Positions 8,942 to 28,204 are shown, counted from the first letter of the whole stretch. The stretch: DNA of 63,179 nucleotides, filler included, from Sphacelaria rigidula (GCA_964200075.2; 7 parts of 7 records of this genome joined end to end with filler, not necessarily neighbours in it); one strand, 5' to 3'. Program-made: numbers and translations. The notes: generated by a model from the letters alone, not told the origin.

Positions 8942-9041
8942 NNNNNNNNNNNNNNNNNNNNNNNNNNNNNNNNNNNNNNNNNNNNTTAATTAATTAANNN
9001 NNNNNNNNNNNNNNNNNNNNNNNNNNNNNNNNNNNNNNNNN
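8942..9041. other. artificial contig spacer N44-TTAATTAATTAA-N44
   Basis: Identical 100-nt spacers also occur at 17983-18082, 27023-27122, 36063-36162, 45102-45201 and 54141-54240. The 12-mer places stops in all six frames. Confidence 0.98.
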
Positions 9042-10504: not shown

Positions 10505-11200
10505 AAAGACCCAGGGNNNNNNNNNNCCCAGGGAGCCTCGTGACGGTGTCCCTTACATCTGTTGCAGAAAAGCTCAGATCGCCCTCAAACTTGGCAATTC
10601 CGTAGGTATTGATGCTTCAAATGAAATCATTGTATTCATGACGATATTTCATGTTTTCTCCGTTCTCTACCGGCATCCGAGGGTCCCAGCATGAAGACCC
10701 CCGGAAGGCGGTACAGAATGCCCCGAAACAACAGTAATAAAACGATGCGTCCCCGGATAGTCCAAGGAACACATGTAGAAAGTTTGAGGGAGAAAGTCGA
10801 AAACCTCATACAGTTTGTCTTGCCTTGACGTGAAATTCACCCCAAAAGACGTTTCCATACTCAAACCAAGTAGTTAGGAGTTGCACGTTTCAAGCCCACG
10901 TCCTCCACAAACGCGCAAACCTTCGCGCCGTTATGTTATGAGGAGTGAGACCCTGAAACTTTGCGCCAATATGCTGTGTGTCATGACGCAACTTTCCATG
11001 GACGGGTTTTCCTTAATATACATGAGATTTTCACTGTTTTTCGGGTGTCCGACGGGATTCAAGTCGTTTTTAGAGGTAGTCTCCATTCTGGGACCCCGGA
11101 GAACCGGCACCACGGTTTTTTAACCACTTTTTCGCAAGGGATCTGTCGCCGCATAACTCAAGGAAGGGCCCCACGAAGGTTTGTCGCAAAAGTCGATTAA
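10505..11200 (+). repeat. dispersed repeat family A (~700 bp, non-coding)
   Basis: Colinear with 26282-26950 (cccagggagcctcgtgacggtgtcc... gttgcacgtttcaagcccacgtcct...). A diverged reverse copy lies around 7490-7720. Confidence 0.85.
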
Positions 11201-17982: not shown

Positions 17983-19802
17983 NNNNNNNNNNNNNNNNNN
18001 NNNNNNNNNNNNNNNNNNNNNNNNNNTTAATTAATTAANNNNNNNNNNNNNNNNNNNNNNNNNNNNNNNNNNNNNNNNNNNNACAAATTTGGACAATCTT
18101 TGAGAAACTGAGAAATTACGGATTCTGCATACTTCTGACGCTGACTACTGTACCTTCGTCAGTTCAAGTTGTTGGTTTCCTGCAATTGGGGAACTGGACG
18201 CCAGAGCGTTCCTTCTGGTTCCATGTGTCAGTCATATGTCCGTACGAGTGTTCCTGAGCAGCTTCCGGTATTGATGCCGACGTTGTTCCCGAGTGCCATT
18301 GCACACCGCGAGGTGCCTTACGCCTCCGGAGACGTAATGTGGACAGCTTTTGTCCATCAAAAAAGCAACCTCACTCCCGCCATTCGGGGTAACAAATATT
18401 TGCCTTCGCGTTCACAGCCTGCCGCTATTTCCTCCGCGAACACCTACGGGTCTGGCGAACGGGACTCGAGTTCATTTTGTGCTGCATGCACCCCCGCCTC
18501 TGTCGCCGGTTCAGTAATGAGTGTTAGTAGTAACAAAGACCCATTCAGCGCAAGTTTTGACGGATGGCCGTACTCTGGAGAGACATGGGACGATGTTTAC
18601 TTGGCTTCTACGACAGCTTTTATCACGGATGACCCCCATTTGTGGAACCAGCTTCTGTCTTCTTCGGCTAAACGCGACGCTTTCACTGCCACGCCAACAG
18701 CCGTATCAATCGCAATGTAAAAGGCCACAGCATGCGTGACTGTGACAACTCATGCATCAACGCATTCGATCTCATGAACCCTGTACAACAGGACAATGAA
18801 CCCGCGTGGCGCCGATGGCAAAAACGAATGCGCGGCCATCGTACCCCAGGTCGAAATAATCTCAACCCTTCGAACACTCGAGGCAACTATCGCTAATCGC
18901 AATCGCCGACAAAACAACAACGATAGTTCTGGCACTCGCCAAAGAGATAATACCTCTCGCGCCAATCATGGTTCCGCTTACAGACACCAGCGGACGCAAC
19001 CGACACAAAGCTGGAACCCCAACACCAGAGACCCTGGTACCTTCACTTCAGCTCGCATAGCTCCATGACGTGGCAACGCCGGCGTTAAAATGTCCTCAGC
19101 GCCGCCGATAGCACTTTCGAAGACTTTTTCAACACCGCCCGCGGAACGAGCGACGAAAACGAATCGCTCAGTCTCCTCGGCGTTATGCAGGAGCACTAAT
19201 TACGGCCGCTCAAATCGACCCCCGTCTTCACCTCTTCACCGCAGAGTAACAGCTGCGTGAACTCACTATTTAGCTCTACGCTCGGCTCTGGACTTGGTCC
19301 TTCAGAACTGAGTGTAAATCTGAGGTGTGGGAACACCAGCTGCCCATCCCTGAGACAAAGGCTTCGCTCAGCGACCGCACACACCGGCAGTAGTGTATCT
19401 CACTCGACTGGTTCAAGTGTCGCTGGTCTCAACTTGACCATTCCGGGTCAAGTAACACCCACCCAGCTCGAACGAGTTCGTTCTTCTCGTTCGTTACACC
19501 ACGCGAAACTACCCCTGAACGGTTCCAAGAAAAACTGTTGTAATTTACAATCGGCTATGACTCCTCAGCCAAGCTTGCCAACGGAAAGTCCACAAGCTTC
19601 GCCCGATTATACCCCGATGCTGACCTCATCCACCCGACTGGACGCACTTGTGATGCCCCAACAAGTTTTGGAAGTTCCCCGACCATCGTCACGGCGAAAG
19701 AGGGAGCCCCGTAGGGATAACCCCAAGAAAAAGTGCGCATCATCACGCTCACCTCTCTCCAGCGGAAAACCTCGACCTTGATTTCTCCAAAATTCGGCGA
19801 CT

Positions 19803-22800
19803 TTGAGCTCGATGGCTTCATCAAGCACCACGGAAGAAACAAATTCAAATATCAATGGCGCCACTGCTTCTTCAATCGACGGCCCCAACAACGCACAATC
19901 TGGATCCACCTTGGATGTTGATCCCTGTCTACCCAGGACGGTCATTTACGAGATCGTTAATGATCAGCCTAATCGTCCCTCACCTGGGAATAATATACCA
20001 TCCGCCACCTTCCCTGGTGAGAAATCTGACCCATCGGCAAATCACCCACCGTCCGTTTTTGCTGTCAGTCCCGCCGATCCTGACCAATTTATCTTGCCGG
20101 AACATGGTCCGGATCTTGGCGGTGAAGTGTCTGTGGACCCGACGCCTTCTACTAAACGCGTCGCGATCCACTTTGATCCAAACGCTACCATGCCTACGAA
20201 CTGCGTATCCTTGTTGGACAGCGGCACCCCGCAAACATTCATTCGAGAATCAACATGGGAACACATGAAACAGACTGACGCTGCTACTGCAGCTTGTGAA
20301 ACCACCACCCAACCTCGAGTATGGGGCGGCTTCGGTGATTCTACCGCACCCCTGGCAACAAGAAAATCCGTAAGTCTCAGTCTGAATTTTTTTCACAACA
20401 CCACTCGTTCTGCCAGCCTGGCTACCTGGGCATTCATTGTCCCCAACAGCACAATGCATCACGCCGTATTGTTGGGCAGAGATAGCTATATGCGGTTTGA
20501 TAAACGAACCTACCGCACGCTTCCACCACTATCGCCACAATCCACGTCTCGTGGAGAATTCAATCTTGAATACTTTGGTACACTTCACGGCGCCCTGGCC
20601 TACCAAAATAGTATACAAGCAACCGGAGCTGCTTACCACCCACGATACAGAGGTAGTATTGGTATACCCCGTATTGGCGCACCAGCCGCCAAAGAACATT
20701 TTGTCTCGGCGGGACAACAATTCCTTCCTCTTACGGCTCATGCTAACTTGGAACCCGGCGATATCTTAGGGATCGCTTCTGCTGCTGCTGACCTGGTGCA
20801 CATCCCACTAGAGACGTGCGTAAGAGAGTCTGCCGAGTCCAACGCAACATCTCCGACGGAGTCAGTTCATTGTGTCGATGAACCATATTTTGACCTCGGC
20901 TCTGCGACTCCACCCCCGGTCCACACCGTGGATCCTGCCCAGTCAAATTCCGATCCTCCTGCTGAAGTGCTTAAAGCTTATCACCAGATTCTCGGAATAG
21001 TTTCTTGCAAATGTGGAACCAACTGCCGCCACACATGCGTTATATCAATTTTGACCTTCAAGGGCCCGGCTGGGAAGGCCAGCAGTCATCCGAGAACTCA
21101 GGGGTGTTCTGCTACAGTACCAAGACCGATTTTCCCGATCCAAGACGGAACTTGGGCACTCCAAAACGCTACCCTTTGAGGTTACACTCCAACCCAGAGT
21201 CTCGCCAATATCTTCTCGACCATACCAGACAGAACCAATCCTCGCCGAAAAGTAAATGCCATCTTGGATGCATATTTGGGAGCAGGGTTATACAACGTTC
21301 CTCCTCTCCTTGGGCCTCGCCACTTGTGGTCGCTCCCAAAAAGGATATAAACATACGCATAGCCGTGAACTACCAACGGTTGAACCGCTTCACTGGGGTT
21401 TGTAAACTTCTAATCCCCCGCATTGATGAAGTCTTCGACTCCTTAGGCGGAGGAAAAATATTAAGCATCTTCGACCTCGCTTCTGGATTTTTCCAGATTG
21501 CTATCCACCCTGACACAGCCCCACTTACGGCCTTTTGTGCCTCGTCCGGGCTCTACGAGTGGCTTCGAATGCTACAAGGCGCTGCCACTGCTCCGGGATG
21601 ATTTCAACGCTTAATGCAACGCGTCACCGAAGGCCTCGAGCACATCATCATGTACCTAGATGATGCTATCGCTTGCGATGCCTCATCTTTTGCACACATC
21701 CGCACTCTACGATAACTTCTCTCTCGCCTACGAACACACGGCTTGAAACCGTCTCCATCCAAAGCTCGCCTTGATGCGACTGACTTGGGTTTCCTGGGTC
21801 ATTCCATTTCACCAGCAGGCCTACATCCGGATATGAACAAAGTCAGGGCGATGATTGACTTGCGGATGTCAACCAACATTTCTCGGCTTCGCTCATTGTT
21901 GGGCGGACTATCCTACTACCACATTTTTTTGCCGAATTTATCCAAATGGATTCACCCCCTTACTGAGTTACACAAGAAAGGAGCCGTGTTTATCTTCACC
22001 ACCGATATGGAGAATATCACCCACGAATTGCTGAAAACGCCTACCGAAAATACGGTACTCTGTTTTCCTGACTGGGAGGCAGTACAAGATGGCTCTCGCC
22101 TTTTCTAACTCCACACTGACGCCAGCATAGACGGATTTGCAGGAGTTTTGAAACAACCTCAGGTTGAGGGTTCTATTCGACCCATCCTCTACATCAGCCG
22201 CGCCACCCTGCCCAACGAGGCCAACTGGAGCCCGCTAGAATTGGAAGGCGGAGTAATCGCCTGGGCCATTAAGCGCCTCCGACGAAATCTATTTCACGTG
22301 CCCTTTGAGATCTACATGGATCATGGGGCACTCGAGCAACTCGCCAAGGTCGGCGAACACAACCCAAATGTACAACGATAGTTGGAGTTTCTAACAGCAT
22401 ACCAGTATACCATTAAGCACCGTCGAGGCAAAACCAACGGGAACGCTGATCTCCTTTGCCAACTACTCCTGCCGCCTACGGCCGCAGTTTTCAGCCCGAC
22501 TTGCCGTTTAAGGGAACCCGATGAACCTGGGATTTACCCTGTCAGACTTTCTTCAACGCCCGTTTATGTCCTTGACCTTCAGTGCCCAGAGACTGGTATG
22601 CACATGGGAGGACCTCGCCCTCTACCATATGACACCGTCTTGGGTGAGTTGAAGCCCACTACCTCCGATTTTGTCGACAACACGCGCTCCCGATCTACCG
22701 CCCGCACCACTCCCCCGAGTGCCCCGCCGCCACCGATAACACCCACAAATTCCACGAACCACGCAACACCAGTCCCACGGACCAGCACGCGACGCTCCGC

Positions 22801-25204
22801 GAAAAATACTGCAACGTGCACGACGCGCCGCGGACAATCTTCGGCGGACAATCTTCGCCGCGCGCTGCTACACCCCCACTGCTCATAACGGCGCCACCAA
22901 CAGCTACCGCTCCTGAGCATAGAGCCGAGGACTCAGCTTCTTCTGCTCCTGGGGCAGGTATTGACGTCGGCATTTTTGCCCCGTCGCCTATTTCGCTGCC
23001 AACCCCACCATGTTTGGTCGGCTCTCCAGCGGAAGGTCAACTCCGCGAGTTTCTCGCCAGCTACTCTCACCGTCATTGGGCTCGCGAACAAAACGCGGAA
23101 CTTACATATCGCGCAGCCATCCGGTACTACAGCTTGACTGCCCAGTCCCTTTTCCATCCGCCCTTCTGGCCCCGGTTGGCACACTGCCACCACCAGATAC
23201 CTCTGACGTATACGAACTCGTGCGTAAAGGCACGATTTCACTACGGATGAAGGCATACAATTACTCGTGCGTCGCCCCACACCTTTGACGGGCGCACTTT
23301 CCGTCTCAACCACGGCACGGCACGCACGACTACTCAATGACGAACCAACGCGCGTATATGTCCCATTATTAATGCGCCCCTGAGTCATGAAAGGCTGTCA
23401 CACGAACTTGTCATGTCACCTTGGCGTCACTCGCACCCTTGCGCTTCTGGATTCGGCGATGCTTCAAATGTGCCAAGCTCGAAAAACTTCACGGCAGACA
23501 GTACACTGGCCCGTCATCTCTATGGGACTCCCCAACGCCCCGGGCTACATTGTGTCCTTTGACTAGTTTGGCCCTCTACCGACCATAGGTCGCGGCAACA
23601 CCTACATCTTACACTTCACTGACCGCTTCAGCTGCCACACGTCCATGTACGCGGTAACCGCTGCAGGTTTCACTGCCGCCGGAACGGCCGATATATTGGT
23701 CCACGACTACATTAGGTACTACGGTTACCCGAAACGACTCCTTTCAGACAATGGTCAGCAATTTTGCTCAAATCTCTCTGATTAGCTTTACAAGCTCATG
23801 GGCATCCGCAAAATTGCCACGAGCGCCTACCACCCTCACGGTAACGGTGGTACCGAAAGACTTAATCACACCATGGCCCAGGTGCTCTCTTTGGTCGACA
23901 ATGACCGCCAAAATGACTGGGACCTAGATCTCTCGCACATCATGTTGTCCTACAACAACTCGATTAACGCCGCCACAGGCCTTTCCCCGAACGAACTCCA
24001 TCTTGGACGCTACCCTCGGCTGCCCATCACTGTGTTTGCGCGACACACGTTCGATGGCCACCAAGGATTGGATCAGGATCAGATATCCTATCACGAACTA
24101 GCGCATTCACGGCAACGCAAAGCGTTCACCCTCGTGCGGAAACAAAACACTATCAACGCCTCGCGCCTTGAGAGATCTAACACTGCTCTCTACGACCTCA
24201 TGCACAAACGCTCGAGCTGAAAGTTGGTGATTGGGTTTATTTTACAACAGTTTGTCGACCATCCGCCAAGGCACCAGCAAGGCAGCCAATGAAACAATTT
24301 TGAAGACAAAGTTGTCCCTCAATTGGGCAGGTCCATTCAAGATCCCGACAGCCAGATCATCGTCATCATCACCGGATGACAAACTGCTCTATCTCGACCT
24401 GCCTCGTGACCTCCGGGGCAAGGACACCAAACCCCGCGTCTCCGTGCACAGATGCAAACCCTGCACGGACCCGCATGATACTAGCGACATGCCCAAGTAC
24501 TTGCCTGCCGGACTCACACAGTACGCTCTCAACAGCGACTCGAACAAGTCCCCGCCCTGTCATATGACCACCGACGACGAGACGGAACAGCCACTCCGAT
24601 TGACCGTGTCCACCATCTCTGGCCACCAGATCACCCGTGGTCGAGGTGGCAAAATTGCCGTCATGTATAAGACCCACTGGCACGGTCTTCGGAGAGCGTC
24701 TTGGGGACGCGAATCCAACCTTGAATGGCAGTGCCGTGCAATCCTCCTGCATTGGAAGCAATCCCAACATAAGCATCTTGCTCTCACAACACGAAATATC
24801 GCAACATGCGCCGTGGTGCAGCACCCCGCGAACTTCACCGCGATCAAGGACTACGCTTTGCCGCCGATGGCTACGAACTCATACCTACCAAGACTTGCAA
24901 GGCGAAGTTCTTCGCAAAGCAGCGAATACTATCCAAGGGCAGCTACCTTTGGTTCAAAGGCAGCGACAACCTCTGGTGGTTGGGTCAGACCCACTCCGCT
25001 AACCTGGTTTCTGCCGACACATACATCGTGCGCTTCATCGACGACCCTGGACCCATCCAGCTCAAGCTTCGGCCAGCACTATACCCCACCTGCCCATCTG
25101 CACCACGCGGATCTTTGTGTCTTCAGCGACTCAAGTCCAAAGGACTTCGCCGCGGCATCCAGCGCAACATCGACCACACCCACGACATCCACGCACCGCT
25201 TTGA
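19803..25204 (+). pseudogene. gypsy pol polyprotein with many stops and frameshifts
   Basis: Motifs are spread over ORFs 19803, 21005, 21743, 22148, 22382, 23798, 24231 and 24806. In-frame stops include 21599-21601, 22379-22381 and 23381-23383. Confidence 0.92.
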
Positions 25205-25809
25205 ACCACGCTCCTTCACTGCAACGTTTCTTTCCTTTTTTAGTATATTTGCCCTCCCTTCTTCGCTAGCACCCAACTCTACGACATCCACAACAGGACA
25301 ACCTACATTCTTCGACGATCGGAGACTACTAGGAGCCACCCACCATCTACGACTACTGGAGCTCTAGTATCCCCTTTTGGCTGGGGCTCGATCTCGTTGG
25401 ATCACCGATTTTCATATTTTGTTTCCCTTGCTTCCGACCAACATGCGTTGGTCACAGACTGATCTTGCTGACTTTTCTTCGGAATCCCCCAGGTAGAAGC
25501 TCTGCTCCCTGTTGTACCTCCCTGGTTTCCCCCTTCGTTTTGCTAGGACGCCGAAGCAATTTGTGCTTCTTCGTTGATCGCTAGCACGCAGAAGCAGCTT
25601 GTGCTCCCGCGTTTCTAAGCCGTCTTTTCTGCTTCTCGAAGCAGTATATGCTTCCCTTATTTTTGAGGTGTGGGAGTGGGTACGGGAGTGTTTCCTCAGG
25701 GGTGCCTCATTAGCCGCTCACGACTTTACGAGTAGAGAAAACCTTAGTTTTCGCTGCTTTTGAGGACAGGCCCTCACATCTGTATTAAAGGTTTGTCTGG
25801 GTGGGTTAA

Positions 25810-26281
25810 TGTCATGAGGAGTATATTAGCCTGTTGTCATGCCGCCTCGGACCCGTAGATGAGTCCGGCTTTATATCTCATCCCAGGCTATTTTAAGACT
25901 GCAGTTCTGTTTAGAGTTGGTCAGATACGAGTGTGAACTTGATATAGCAGGGATAGTAAGACGGACGATGATCCCTACGCCAGACACCACGTCTCATCTC
26001 CGGCAAAGAAGTCTCGCATCACGGTGAGAATGATCGATTGAGCGAGAGAGATTGAATACTGAGGAGATCTAGGACCGAGTAATCAAAAAGAGAAATTATC
26101 TACCTACGCGTGACATTCTGATACCTTGGGCACATAAATACTAGGGCGGAGCCGCAGCGTTTAGTCCACGCTGCACAGTGCCTTTGCCTACTCCACGGCT
26201 CGGTTATCCAGCCTGTTGTCTGCCCCCCTGCCTTGCCTAGTGAGCCTGTGCTCGCCATACATCCGGCACAATCCCATCACA
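25810..26281 (+). repeat. 3' LTR of the gypsy element (472 bp)
   Basis: TGTCATG...CATCACA termini, preceded by a G-rich tract, and homologous end to end with 29681-30153. Confidence 0.88.
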
Positions 26282-26950
26282 GAACGACCCAGGGAGCCTC
26301 GTGACGGTGTCCCCTACATCTATTGTAGAAAAGCTCAGATCGCCCTCAAATTAGGCAGTTCCGTAGATATTGATGCTCCAAATGGAAAAACTGTACTCTT
26401 GATCATATTTCATTGTTTCTACGTTCTCTACAGGCTTCCGGGGGGACCAATATAAAGACCCCTGGAAGGCGGTACAGAATGCCCCGAAATAAAAATAATT
26501 AAATGATGCGTTGCGAGATAGTCCAAGGAACGCATGTACAAGTTTTGGTGAAGAAACTCGAAAACTTACACAGTGTTTCTTGCCCTGACGTAAAACTCGC
26601 CCCAAAATACGTTTTCATACTAAAACCAAGTAGTAAGGAGTTGCACGTTTCAAGCCCACGTCCTGCACAAACGCGCAAACCTTCACGCCGTTATGAGGAG
26701 TTAGACCCTGACACTTTGCACGAAGATGCTATGTGACATTAACCAACTTACATGGACGAGTTTTTTCAATTTCTTGAGTTTTTTATCGTGTTTCGGGGGT
26801 CCGACGGGATCCAAGTCATTTTTCGAATAAGTCTCCGTCCTGGGACCCCGGAAAACCGGAACTACGATACTTTTTATTGTTCCGCGAACGAGCTTTCGCT
26901 GCATAACCCGAGGAAGTGCCCCACAAAATTTTATCGCAAAACTCGATCAT
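26282..26950 (+). repeat. dispersed repeat family A copy abutting the gypsy 3' LTR
   Basis: Colinear with 10505-11200. Confidence 0.85.
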
Positions 26951-28204
26951 CTGATAACAACAAATTGTGCGAATTGAGGTTTAACTTCGAGATGAGGTTC
27001 AAGCCGAAAAACAGTGCTTTCCNNNNNNNNNNNNNNNNNNNNNNNNNNNNNNNNNNNNNNNNNNNNTTAATTAATTAANNNNNNNNNNNNNNNNNNNNNN
27101 NNNNNNNNNNNNNNNNNNNNNNCAGCCTACAATGAGTTGCTTTGTTTTCTGGTATCGCCACTTCCTGAGACAGCCACAGCGTATACACTGCCTCATGGGT
27201 GCCTCACCATCCATCGGGGGTGGGGGACTCCGCGTCCTCAAATCTTGTCCGCGGAGCCCCCTGGGCATGGTGGCAATTTCAGATTATAATACCGTAGAAG
27301 GAAAATATCTTCCATATGGAGGATAAACCTCAAGTGTGGGCTGGCGATCGCATGCGCGACTTCGTTGTTCGGGTTGTTCATGGATCAAAATAAATTGTAC
27401 AGATAACGCTCATCATTATCCCTCGAATATCTTCGAGGAGAACATCGCATAAACAAGAGAGAATATAACTGCACAGAACTAATCGTTATCGGTCTAAAGT
27501 CATCAATGCGAAGGCCTCGCTGATTCTGAACTGATCCCGTGCGAAATCAATGCGTGATGGCACAAAAGACACCACGGCTCGACTGCTGCCGAGATAGCCC
27601 CCCTCCGAACCGGCCAAAAAAGTGCACGGAGGCGATGATCATAGATAGATGCCGTTAGAGCTGGTTCTGTGCTGCACGACGCGACTCATTTGGGCGTTAC
27701 AGCTGATTTCGGACTGCTACACGCCTCTCATGTGGGCGAAATTGCTGCAAACGAGCCCAATAGTGGGATTTCAGCCGGTCGTTTGGACGGTCTCCGTTGC
27801 ACATTTTGTGGGGGGGCTGTGTCGGCATTAGTCGCTCAGGGCATAACAGCTGGAATGATGCGCTGGAGAAGACCCAGACCACCACAATCCAAGGAAACGT
27901 TTTATGCACCCAAGGGGTTGCAAATAAGCGATGCACCCGGGGGCACTTCCGCGGTACCCCAGGCCCACGTCTTGTGGGCCCAATTTCGATCCAAATCAGG
28001 GAAAAAAAACACAGTCCGACTGGAACTTCGGTGGAGACGCCGAATCCGAGAGGCCTCTCGCGGGATTAACCCTCAACTCACTTGGAAAATCACCATTTTG
28101 CGTTCGAGATAACCAACTCGGGGTATTTATGACGGGCCATTCAAAAGGCAATCCGGACATCGCATCTACGCTGTCCAGTTAATGGATGTGAGAAGAGCTT
28201 GCGA

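Follow-up and report, generated by a model that had tools for sequence, protein, structure and literature searches.

A predicted chromodomain and Tudor-like barrel in the integrase tail of a brown-algal Gypsy group, seen in a decayed copy from Sphacelaria rigidula

A decayed Ty3/Gypsy element and its tail

The window, meaning the whole stretch of 63,179 nucleotides analysed here, stems from the genome of the brown alga Sphacelaria rigidula (GCA_964200075.2), an assembly of 27,214 short contigs. It is an artificial join of separate contigs of about 9 kb each, and proximity across the N spacers between them is therefore meaningless; spacers with a TTAATTAATTAA core recur every 9 kb (8942-9041, 17983-18082, 27023-27122 and further). 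The contig piece 18084-27022 (G000:C9694) contains a decayed element on the plus strand, which the order protease, reverse transcriptase (RT), RNase H and integrase together with a long terminal repeat (LTR) assigns to Ty3/Gypsy. The following features were located:

20118-20480, plus strand: aspartic protease region of pol, decayed (tblastn against a full-length relative, 40% identity)
21332-21808, plus strand: reverse transcriptase with in-frame stops (Pfam RVT_1, E 4.8e-6; tblastn 57%)
22088-22402, plus strand: RNase H with stops (Pfam RT_RNaseH, E 1e-19; tblastn)
23363-24016, plus strand: integrase H2C2 zinc finger, partly deleted, from 23363, and catalytic core, 23534-24016 (tblastn, 80-86% to sibling L009)
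24201-24479, plus strand: presumed GPY/F, SH3-like integrase C-terminal region, broken by indels (72% to a sibling)
24591-24767, plus strand, frame 3: predicted chromodomain fold, group II-like (Pfam Chromo in relatives; fold match to Chp1; residue tallies)
24782-24785, plus strand: frameshifting indel peculiar to the window copy (sibling alignments)
24782-24865, plus strand, frame 2: predicted conserved basic linker helix (model helix 84-101; charge; dN/dS)
24866-25141, plus strand, frame 2: predicted Tudor-like small beta-barrel with two of four cage aromatics (model; Foldseek, VIA-align and profile searches; dN/dS)
25202-25204, plus strand: stop codon ending pol (siblings terminate at the same place)
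25810-26281, plus strand: 3' LTR of 472 bp, TG...CA (repeat boundaries in other copies)

Every part from the protease through the GPY/F region bears stops or frameshifts. In the latter, which we take to be GPY/F by its motif, sibling alignments place small indels at 24219, 24242 and 24379. In the full-length relative P0190 the protease region is weakly scored as Asp_protease_2. The chromodomain block of the window carries substitutions absent from most relatives, and its sole retained cage aromatic is the central tryptophan (codon 24678-24680). An open stretch in frame 2 of the plus strand, 24773-25201, contains the linker helix and the second block. Neither tail block was matched by Pfam in the window's own fragments, because both are degenerate. 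Homology of the 3' LTR to other copies stops at 26280-26284, and solo or 5' LTR copies start at 25808-25813; a 5' LTR was not found on the contig piece. Just past the 3' LTR another interspersed repeat starts, at 26288-26873, with a further copy at 10527-11121 (copies 80-84% identical). None of the sequencing records containing the stretch is typed as RNA; contigs of four runs cover it and are uninformative on transcription.

The sequence-only reading had started from two peptides behind the integrase, separated by a frameshift. Both are present where it had placed them, and the second block is not a chance reading frame, since it has 150 scored matches among 938 candidates in the genome and relatives in other brown algae. 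With the longer tail of a relative as query, 141 scored matches among 1,308 candidates were obtained in the genome.

The change of frame is a small indel near 24784, at which the window departs from 25 of the 29 sibling alignments covering the site. Both blocks were matched in 28 of the 30 best loci, one of the 28 being the window itself, and the remaining 27 siblings all hold the two blocks in one frame, 14 of them with no stop in between. The frame is open from the integrase core to the barrel in L006 and L009, two of the 21 siblings that also hold the core, and L009 scores Integrase_H2C2 and rve in the frame of the tail. Among 20 long relatives from the protein collection, ten combine RT, integrase and tail within one predicted protein. 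Since siblings keep both blocks in one frame, the frame change is damage, a lesion of the window copy, and a programmed frameshift between the blocks is ruled out by the same alignments. The second block is thus in frame with the integrase in intact copies, as had been supposed. The spacer between chromodomain and barrel measures 50-59 residues in 27 of 28 long proteins, a count that is not independent because these proteins were found via the tail.

Predicted folds, selection and aromatic cages

AlphaFold2 was run on the C-terminal 220 residues of an in-frame natural copy with 128 aligned sequences. The resulting model has a mean pLDDT of 85.8 and a pTM of 0.75 (84.4-85.8 across the five models) and supersedes an earlier one built from 15 sequences, in which the chromodomain (pLDDT 39-47) was unreliable. 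It runs from the chromodomain through a helix (84-101) and a further strand and helix to a five-stranded barrel (135-197), and chromodomain, helix and barrel are predicted to fold as one compact unit. A homodimer prediction for the tail scored 0.00 and is uninformative.

The model bears out the earlier assignment of the first block, which is predicted to have the chromodomain fold (residues 18-76; strands 23-33, 39-47 and 54-57, helix 58-73). VIA-align matched it to Chp1 (Z 6.4, rmsd 1.8, 53 aligned) and also to Rhino, HP1, Chd1 and Polycomb. Pfam Chromo scores above its cut-off in the relative P0011 (26.8 versus 25.1 bits) and reaches E<=0.1 in 15 of 33 members.

The barrel is modelled at pLDDT 86-94, with an extra leading strand and helix and a closing strand. 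Foldseek aligned it with the PHF19/PHF1 Tudor at probability 1.00 and rmsd 1.7 over 45 columns (24% identity, E ~0.03), ranking this match first in one search and fifth in another, and PHF19 also ranked first when the sequence profile of the barrel was compared with the PDB (E 0.055). In VIA-align the Tudor matches span Z 5.1-5.9, among them RDM15 (Z 5.9, rmsd 1.9, 56 aligned) and PHF19 (Z 5.6, rmsd 2.0, 55 aligned); the barrel also ties with TraI (Z 6.5-6.7), Spindlin, KOW, UvrD and PWWP barrels. No match of the barrel reached E<=0.001 or Z 8 in the fold and profile searches. Because all Z-scores of the tail lie below 8 and non-reader barrels are among the matches, the fold does not fix the function, and 'Tudor-like small beta-barrel' is the name that the modelling data allow. 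No Pfam Tudor family scored above cut-off in 32 members, and SH3_VIII-1_N was found weakly in five of them.

The Royal-family likeness proposed for the second block thus holds as far as a Tudor-like barrel is predicted and Tudors are among its best matches. Its PWWP side does not: the PWWP motif is absent, Pfam PWWP was found in one of 32 members at E 0.12, and the barrel is followed by a strand and short helices. The motif quoted for it was also inexact in its spacing, with 5 residues from K to WW and 12 from G to Y.

Two internal origins of the barrel were rejected. Profile comparison lent no support to its having arisen by duplication from GPY/F (hhalign probability 0.65%) or from the chromodomain (probability under 1%). 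No solved chain with the tandem as a unit was among the top fold-search rows, and a viral library gave nothing at E<=0.001. Tudor-type and Chromo clusters of the ESM Atlas scored 0.79-0.88, below the 0.9 level, and are leads only.

Pairwise dN/dS between natural copies (Nei-Gojobori) was 0.07-0.17 for the chromodomain, 0.12-0.19 for the barrel and 0.20-0.32 for the linker helix, compared with 0.14-0.31 for GPY/F and 0.06-0.34 for the integrase core; saturation affects the most distant comparison, and absolute values are biased low because copies with open frames were chosen and pairs are non-independent. These ratios indicate purifying selection on both tail domains, and the barrel appears as constrained as the enzyme, a between-domain comparison that stands despite the bias. 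Residues 77-108 of a sibling, covering the linker, hold 8 K/R versus 2 D/E, and chromodomain, helix and barrel are each net basic.

The cage of HP1 consists of Y24, W45 and Y48; in group II retrotransposon chromodomains the first of these is missing, and usually the third as well (PMC3350952). Residues at these positions were tallied among 161 relatives, with totals that vary with coverage. The first position is L in 67 of 99 (4% aromatic), the second W in 110 of 125 (90% aromatic) and the third L in 92 of 125 (5% aromatic). As judged from these alignments, the canonical group I, HP1-type cage is absent, one of three aromatics being kept, and the chromodomain fits the group II pattern, a likeness of pattern and not of descent. 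For control, 25 of the 34 Pfam Chromo matches in the genome were inspected, and 22 of them belong to another Gypsy group (L115-L136) that is mostly aromatic at all three positions and stops some 25 residues past the chromodomain.

The Tudor cage of PHF19 is formed by W50, Y56, F74 and Y80 (PMC7105160). Following the profile alignment of barrel and PHF19, the W50 position holds a small residue (0 of 77 aromatic), the Y56 position W in 58 of 67, the F74 position F in 61 of 70 and the Y80 position, assuming that spacing is kept, P in 62 of 65. At barrel positions 166-180 aromatics make up 7% or less at any one position, so that the fourth wall is missing in any register. The main group therefore appears to keep two of the four aromatics and to lack a PHF19-type cage. 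Of the SH3-like barrel with an aromatic cage that had been expected for the second block, the five-stranded barrel is predicted and half of the cage residues are present. Acidic residues lie beside the retained W and F, with further conserved aromatics nearby, which could form a non-canonical pocket.

A divergent group in the same genome (L093-L111, e.g. L108:2297-8521:+) keeps the whole tail at about 35% identity and aligns with the main group at an hhalign probability of 100 (E 4e-54). In its 13 rows the W50 position is T/M/S, Y56 is Q/L/H, F74 is M in 8 of 10 with one F, and Y80 is R/K. A Tyr one position past the fourth barrel site and a Tyr/Phe/His two positions ahead of the first chromodomain site would leave room for a rebuilt pocket. 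Both groups keep the barrel core, the basic helix and the G-x-W-C strand that closes the barrel, and both have an Arg and an Asp around the third strand.

Relatives and known elements

Searched against 1.84 billion representatives, a profile of the tail matched 1,243 clusters at E<=0.001, and relatives were drawn from the best 150 of these. Named members among the matches listed are Ectocarpus sp. CCAP 1310/34, Sphacelaria rigidula and one Undaria gene model. In a related family of the genome, 324 residues align at 92% identity with a protein labelled Sphacelaria rigidula, and the integrase core of Ectocarpus-labelled relatives is 57-61% identical to that of the window family. A stand-alone host protein with the barrel was not seen among 18 matches of 7,999 candidates of 411-2000 residues, which is weak evidence. 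In the proteins P0079, P0135 and P0068 the tail or the barrel alone appears fused to N-terminal non-pol sequence; domestication or chimeric gene calls are possible.

Four Gypsy lineages have been described in Ectocarpus, three of them with C-terminal chromodomains (Dinatale et al., 2025; PMC12477816). Since that work puts the Ectocarpus chromodomain lineages outside the chromoviruses, the window element is probably not a chromovirus either. Lineage IV (e.g. Gypsy-12_Ec32) combines an N-terminal NADAR domain with a C-terminal chromodomain (PMC12477816). Four of the 20 long relatives are NADAR/RT/RNase H proteins with the tail of the window family, two of them named Ectocarpus sp. CCAP 1310/34, and the three NADAR-bearing proteins tested have integrase cores 59-61% identical to that of the window family. 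From the presence of NADAR we infer that these proteins belong to lineage IV; lineage IV most likely has the tandem, because four of 20 long tail-bearing relatives carry NADAR. In contrast, the published text and supplement legends name the chromodomain only and no second barrel (PMC12477816). The divergent group, in which NADAR was absent from the one long pol scanned, may correspond to another published Ectocarpus chromodomain lineage.

No NADAR was found by tblastn in the window or in four long sibling loci of the window family; the assembly may be incomplete. Genome-wide, NADAR gave two matches, the better of which is not beside pol domains. At L051 (G000:C4:33863-37309) NADAR ends a long proline-rich open frame with short repeats, and a weaker copy lies on the same contig. 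Its absence from the tail-bearing families examined here (window 19782-20120; L039, L043, L044, L047) and presence in Ectocarpus relatives would mean loss here or gain there. In an integrase tree of 24 of 39 rows (15 near-duplicates dropped) the window family lies outside the NADAR-containing subgroup (support 90/94), and all tail-bearing rows are separated from two distant rows (100/100); inner relations are unresolved, and long branches meet.

A Tudor domain has already been reported from Gypsy-10_Ec32, an element of Ectocarpus and Tribonema called the first Tudor in a transposon (PMC12477816). Like the window family, it is a brown-algal Ty3/Gypsy whose pol ends in a Tudor-type domain. A separate Gypsy group in our genome (L138-L150; e.g. 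L143:1186-1638:+ and L145:1186-1638:+) carries at its end a Tudor of the PTM/DIR17 type (PF21743; 76 matches of 150 scored in the genome), and is the probable counterpart of Gypsy-10_Ec32. Compared via this group, the two differ: the integrases are 22-25% identical, and the accessible text on Gypsy-10_Ec32 reports no chromodomain (PMC12477816). The published Tudor-bearing Gypsy thus appears to be a lineage different from the window family. Identity of the window family with the PTM-type Tudor lineage was rejected, as the Tudor of that lineage does not align with the barrel (hhalign probability 0.5%). In that lineage the 60 residues ahead of a short linker in front of the Tudor look chromo-like by eye, and Pfam, PDB profile and hhalign gave no support for a chromodomain there; if true, it would constitute a second, independent chromo-plus-Tudor tandem.

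Plant chromoviruses (Tekay, Reina, Galadriel) share with the window family a C-terminal chromodomain on the integrase in which only the central cage tryptophan is kept (PMC3350952; PMC2832683). They differ in that their group II members have a single domain, no second barrel being reported in the accessible text, and belong to another lineage according to PMC12477816. ECR-1 and ECR-like elements are likewise brown-algal Gypsy elements with an integrase-fused chromodomain (PMC11541908; bioRxiv 10.64898/2025.12.07.692804), but ECR-1 keeps all three cage aromatics (PMC11541908). The cage-keeping group of our control is probably ECR or ECR-like; unlike the window family it ends right after the chromodomain, and its integrase is 23% identical. 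The Tudor of the Polycomb-like proteins PHF19/PHF1, similar in fold to the barrel and with aromatics matching at the Y56 and F74 positions, differs in that the barrel is non-aromatic at the W50 and Y80 positions and has an added helix and closing strand; descent from it is not established because the E-values are not significant database-wide. Chromodomains are also carried by the Chronos elements of oomycetes (PMC5348765), and Grau-Bove et al. counted 823 reader-transposon fusions, mostly with PHD and Chromo (10.1101/2021.11.30.470311). A Gypsy integrase with chromodomain plus Tudor or with tandem chromodomains was not found reported in the open-access literature.

Possible roles of the tail

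The tail occupies the position that targeting domains use in chromoviruses. We propose that its last three parts, the predicted chromodomain fold, basic helix and Tudor-like barrel, form one unit that travels with the integrase and would anchor the integration complex on chromatin with no classical cage for methyl-lysine involved. The basic and aromatic surfaces of the unit would make the contact, be it with nucleosomal DNA, with an unmodified histone surface or with a chromatin protein of the host, and this would bias the landing sites of new copies, as has been reported for group II chromodomains of plant elements, which are likewise cage-deficient. The proposal builds on the observed architecture, reading frame, selection and lack of cage residues together with the predicted folds. 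We give a tether of this kind, which would attach to nucleosomes, DNA or a chromatin protein of the host independently of a cage, a probability of roughly one half. Group II chromodomains do not bind H3K9me and yet carried YFP to heterochromatin via a partner (PMC2832683, citing Gao 2008; PMC3350952). LORE1 counts against the targeting view, since it has a canonical group II chromodomain and shows no strong global preference for heterochromatin in the available account.

The tail might instead serve the element's own machinery, in cDNA or RNA binding or in the assembly of intasome or particle, like SH3-type integrase C-terminal domains. The basic surface would suit such a role, as would the DNA- and RNA-binding barrels among the fold matches (TraI, KOW/Spt5, UvrD) and the pattern of conservation, in which both groups retain core, basic and closing-strand residues but not those of the cage. 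It sits less well with a first domain that has a true chromodomain fold with Pfam support, typical of chromatin proteins, or with a barrel that shows no sign of being a GPY/F duplicate and whose best sequence-profile match is a chromatin-reader Tudor; we regard this role as possible, if somewhat unlikely. Also conceivable is that the chromodomain alone engages a ligand, helix and barrel being a captured Tudor that now acts as a structural buttress. The near-fixed spacer (50-59 residues in 27 of 28 long proteins, a non-independent count) and the gain of the chromodomain from pLDDT 39-47 with a shallow alignment to a good prediction at pTM 0.75 with a deep one are compatible with domain packing, the latter being explicable by alignment depth alone. 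As constraint on the surface residues of the barrel (R, D, W and the closing G-x-W-C strand) is as strong as that on the chromodomain, we consider a mere buttress very improbable.

The sequence-only reading had favoured a two-reader system for chromatin targeting. As a pair of methyl-lysine readers, the domains would bind methylated histone tails (e.g. H4K20me3, H3K36me3 or H3K4me) via reduced or rebuilt pockets and so target integration combinatorially in a lineage that lacks H3K27 methylation. Both domains have reader folds by prediction, the best Tudor matches read H3K36me3 (PHF1/PHF19) or H3K4me1 (RDM15), and two cage positions of the main group are still occupied by W and F, next to acidic residues and near further conserved aromatics. 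Against this, one of three and two of four cage aromatics are present in the main group. The barrel of the divergent group has T/M/S at the W50 position, Q/L/H at Y56 and mostly M (one F in 10) at F74, and an intact cage can be seen for comparison in the unrelated cage-keeping Gypsy group of this genome. The double-reader idea is not borne out by these residues, and we judge it decidedly unlikely.

Compared with the cage-independent tether, a bolder reading is that chromodomain, helix and Tudor form an undescribed tandem reader, retained throughout a broad set of brown-algal Gypsy elements, of a brown-alga-specific feature, such as H3K79me2 or H4K20me3 nucleosomes or a host silencing protein. 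It would use a non-canonical surface and steer integration in a lineage without DNA methylation and PRC2. This we put forward as an unlikely but tentative idea; if true, the tail would be a ready probe for what defines repressed brown-algal chromatin. Brown algae lack DNA methyltransferases, PRC2 and H3K27 methylation, and H3K9me1 or H3K9me3 is present in some species (PMC13076208). Of the marks that had been named as missing in Ectocarpus, 5mC and H3K27 methylation are thus reported as lost in brown algae generally, and H3K9 methylation is not missing throughout.

Taken together, the two-domain integrase tail is a real, conserved and apparently unreported feature of a major Gypsy group of brown algae, and the copy in the window is a dead one; the data support the architecture well but do not support two methyl-readers. 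The group is abundant in this genome (more than 1,300 candidate places) and present in Ectocarpus and Sphacelaria, and a conserved domain seems to have been overlooked in its published annotation. Among the known ways in which LTR elements choose chromatin, reader domains fused to the integrase are the main one. Even if the module had no ligand, it would still correct the architecture of a major transposon lineage; as a cage-less module of 190 residues, predicted to be well folded, it would offer a handle on how brown-algal repressed chromatin is recognised.
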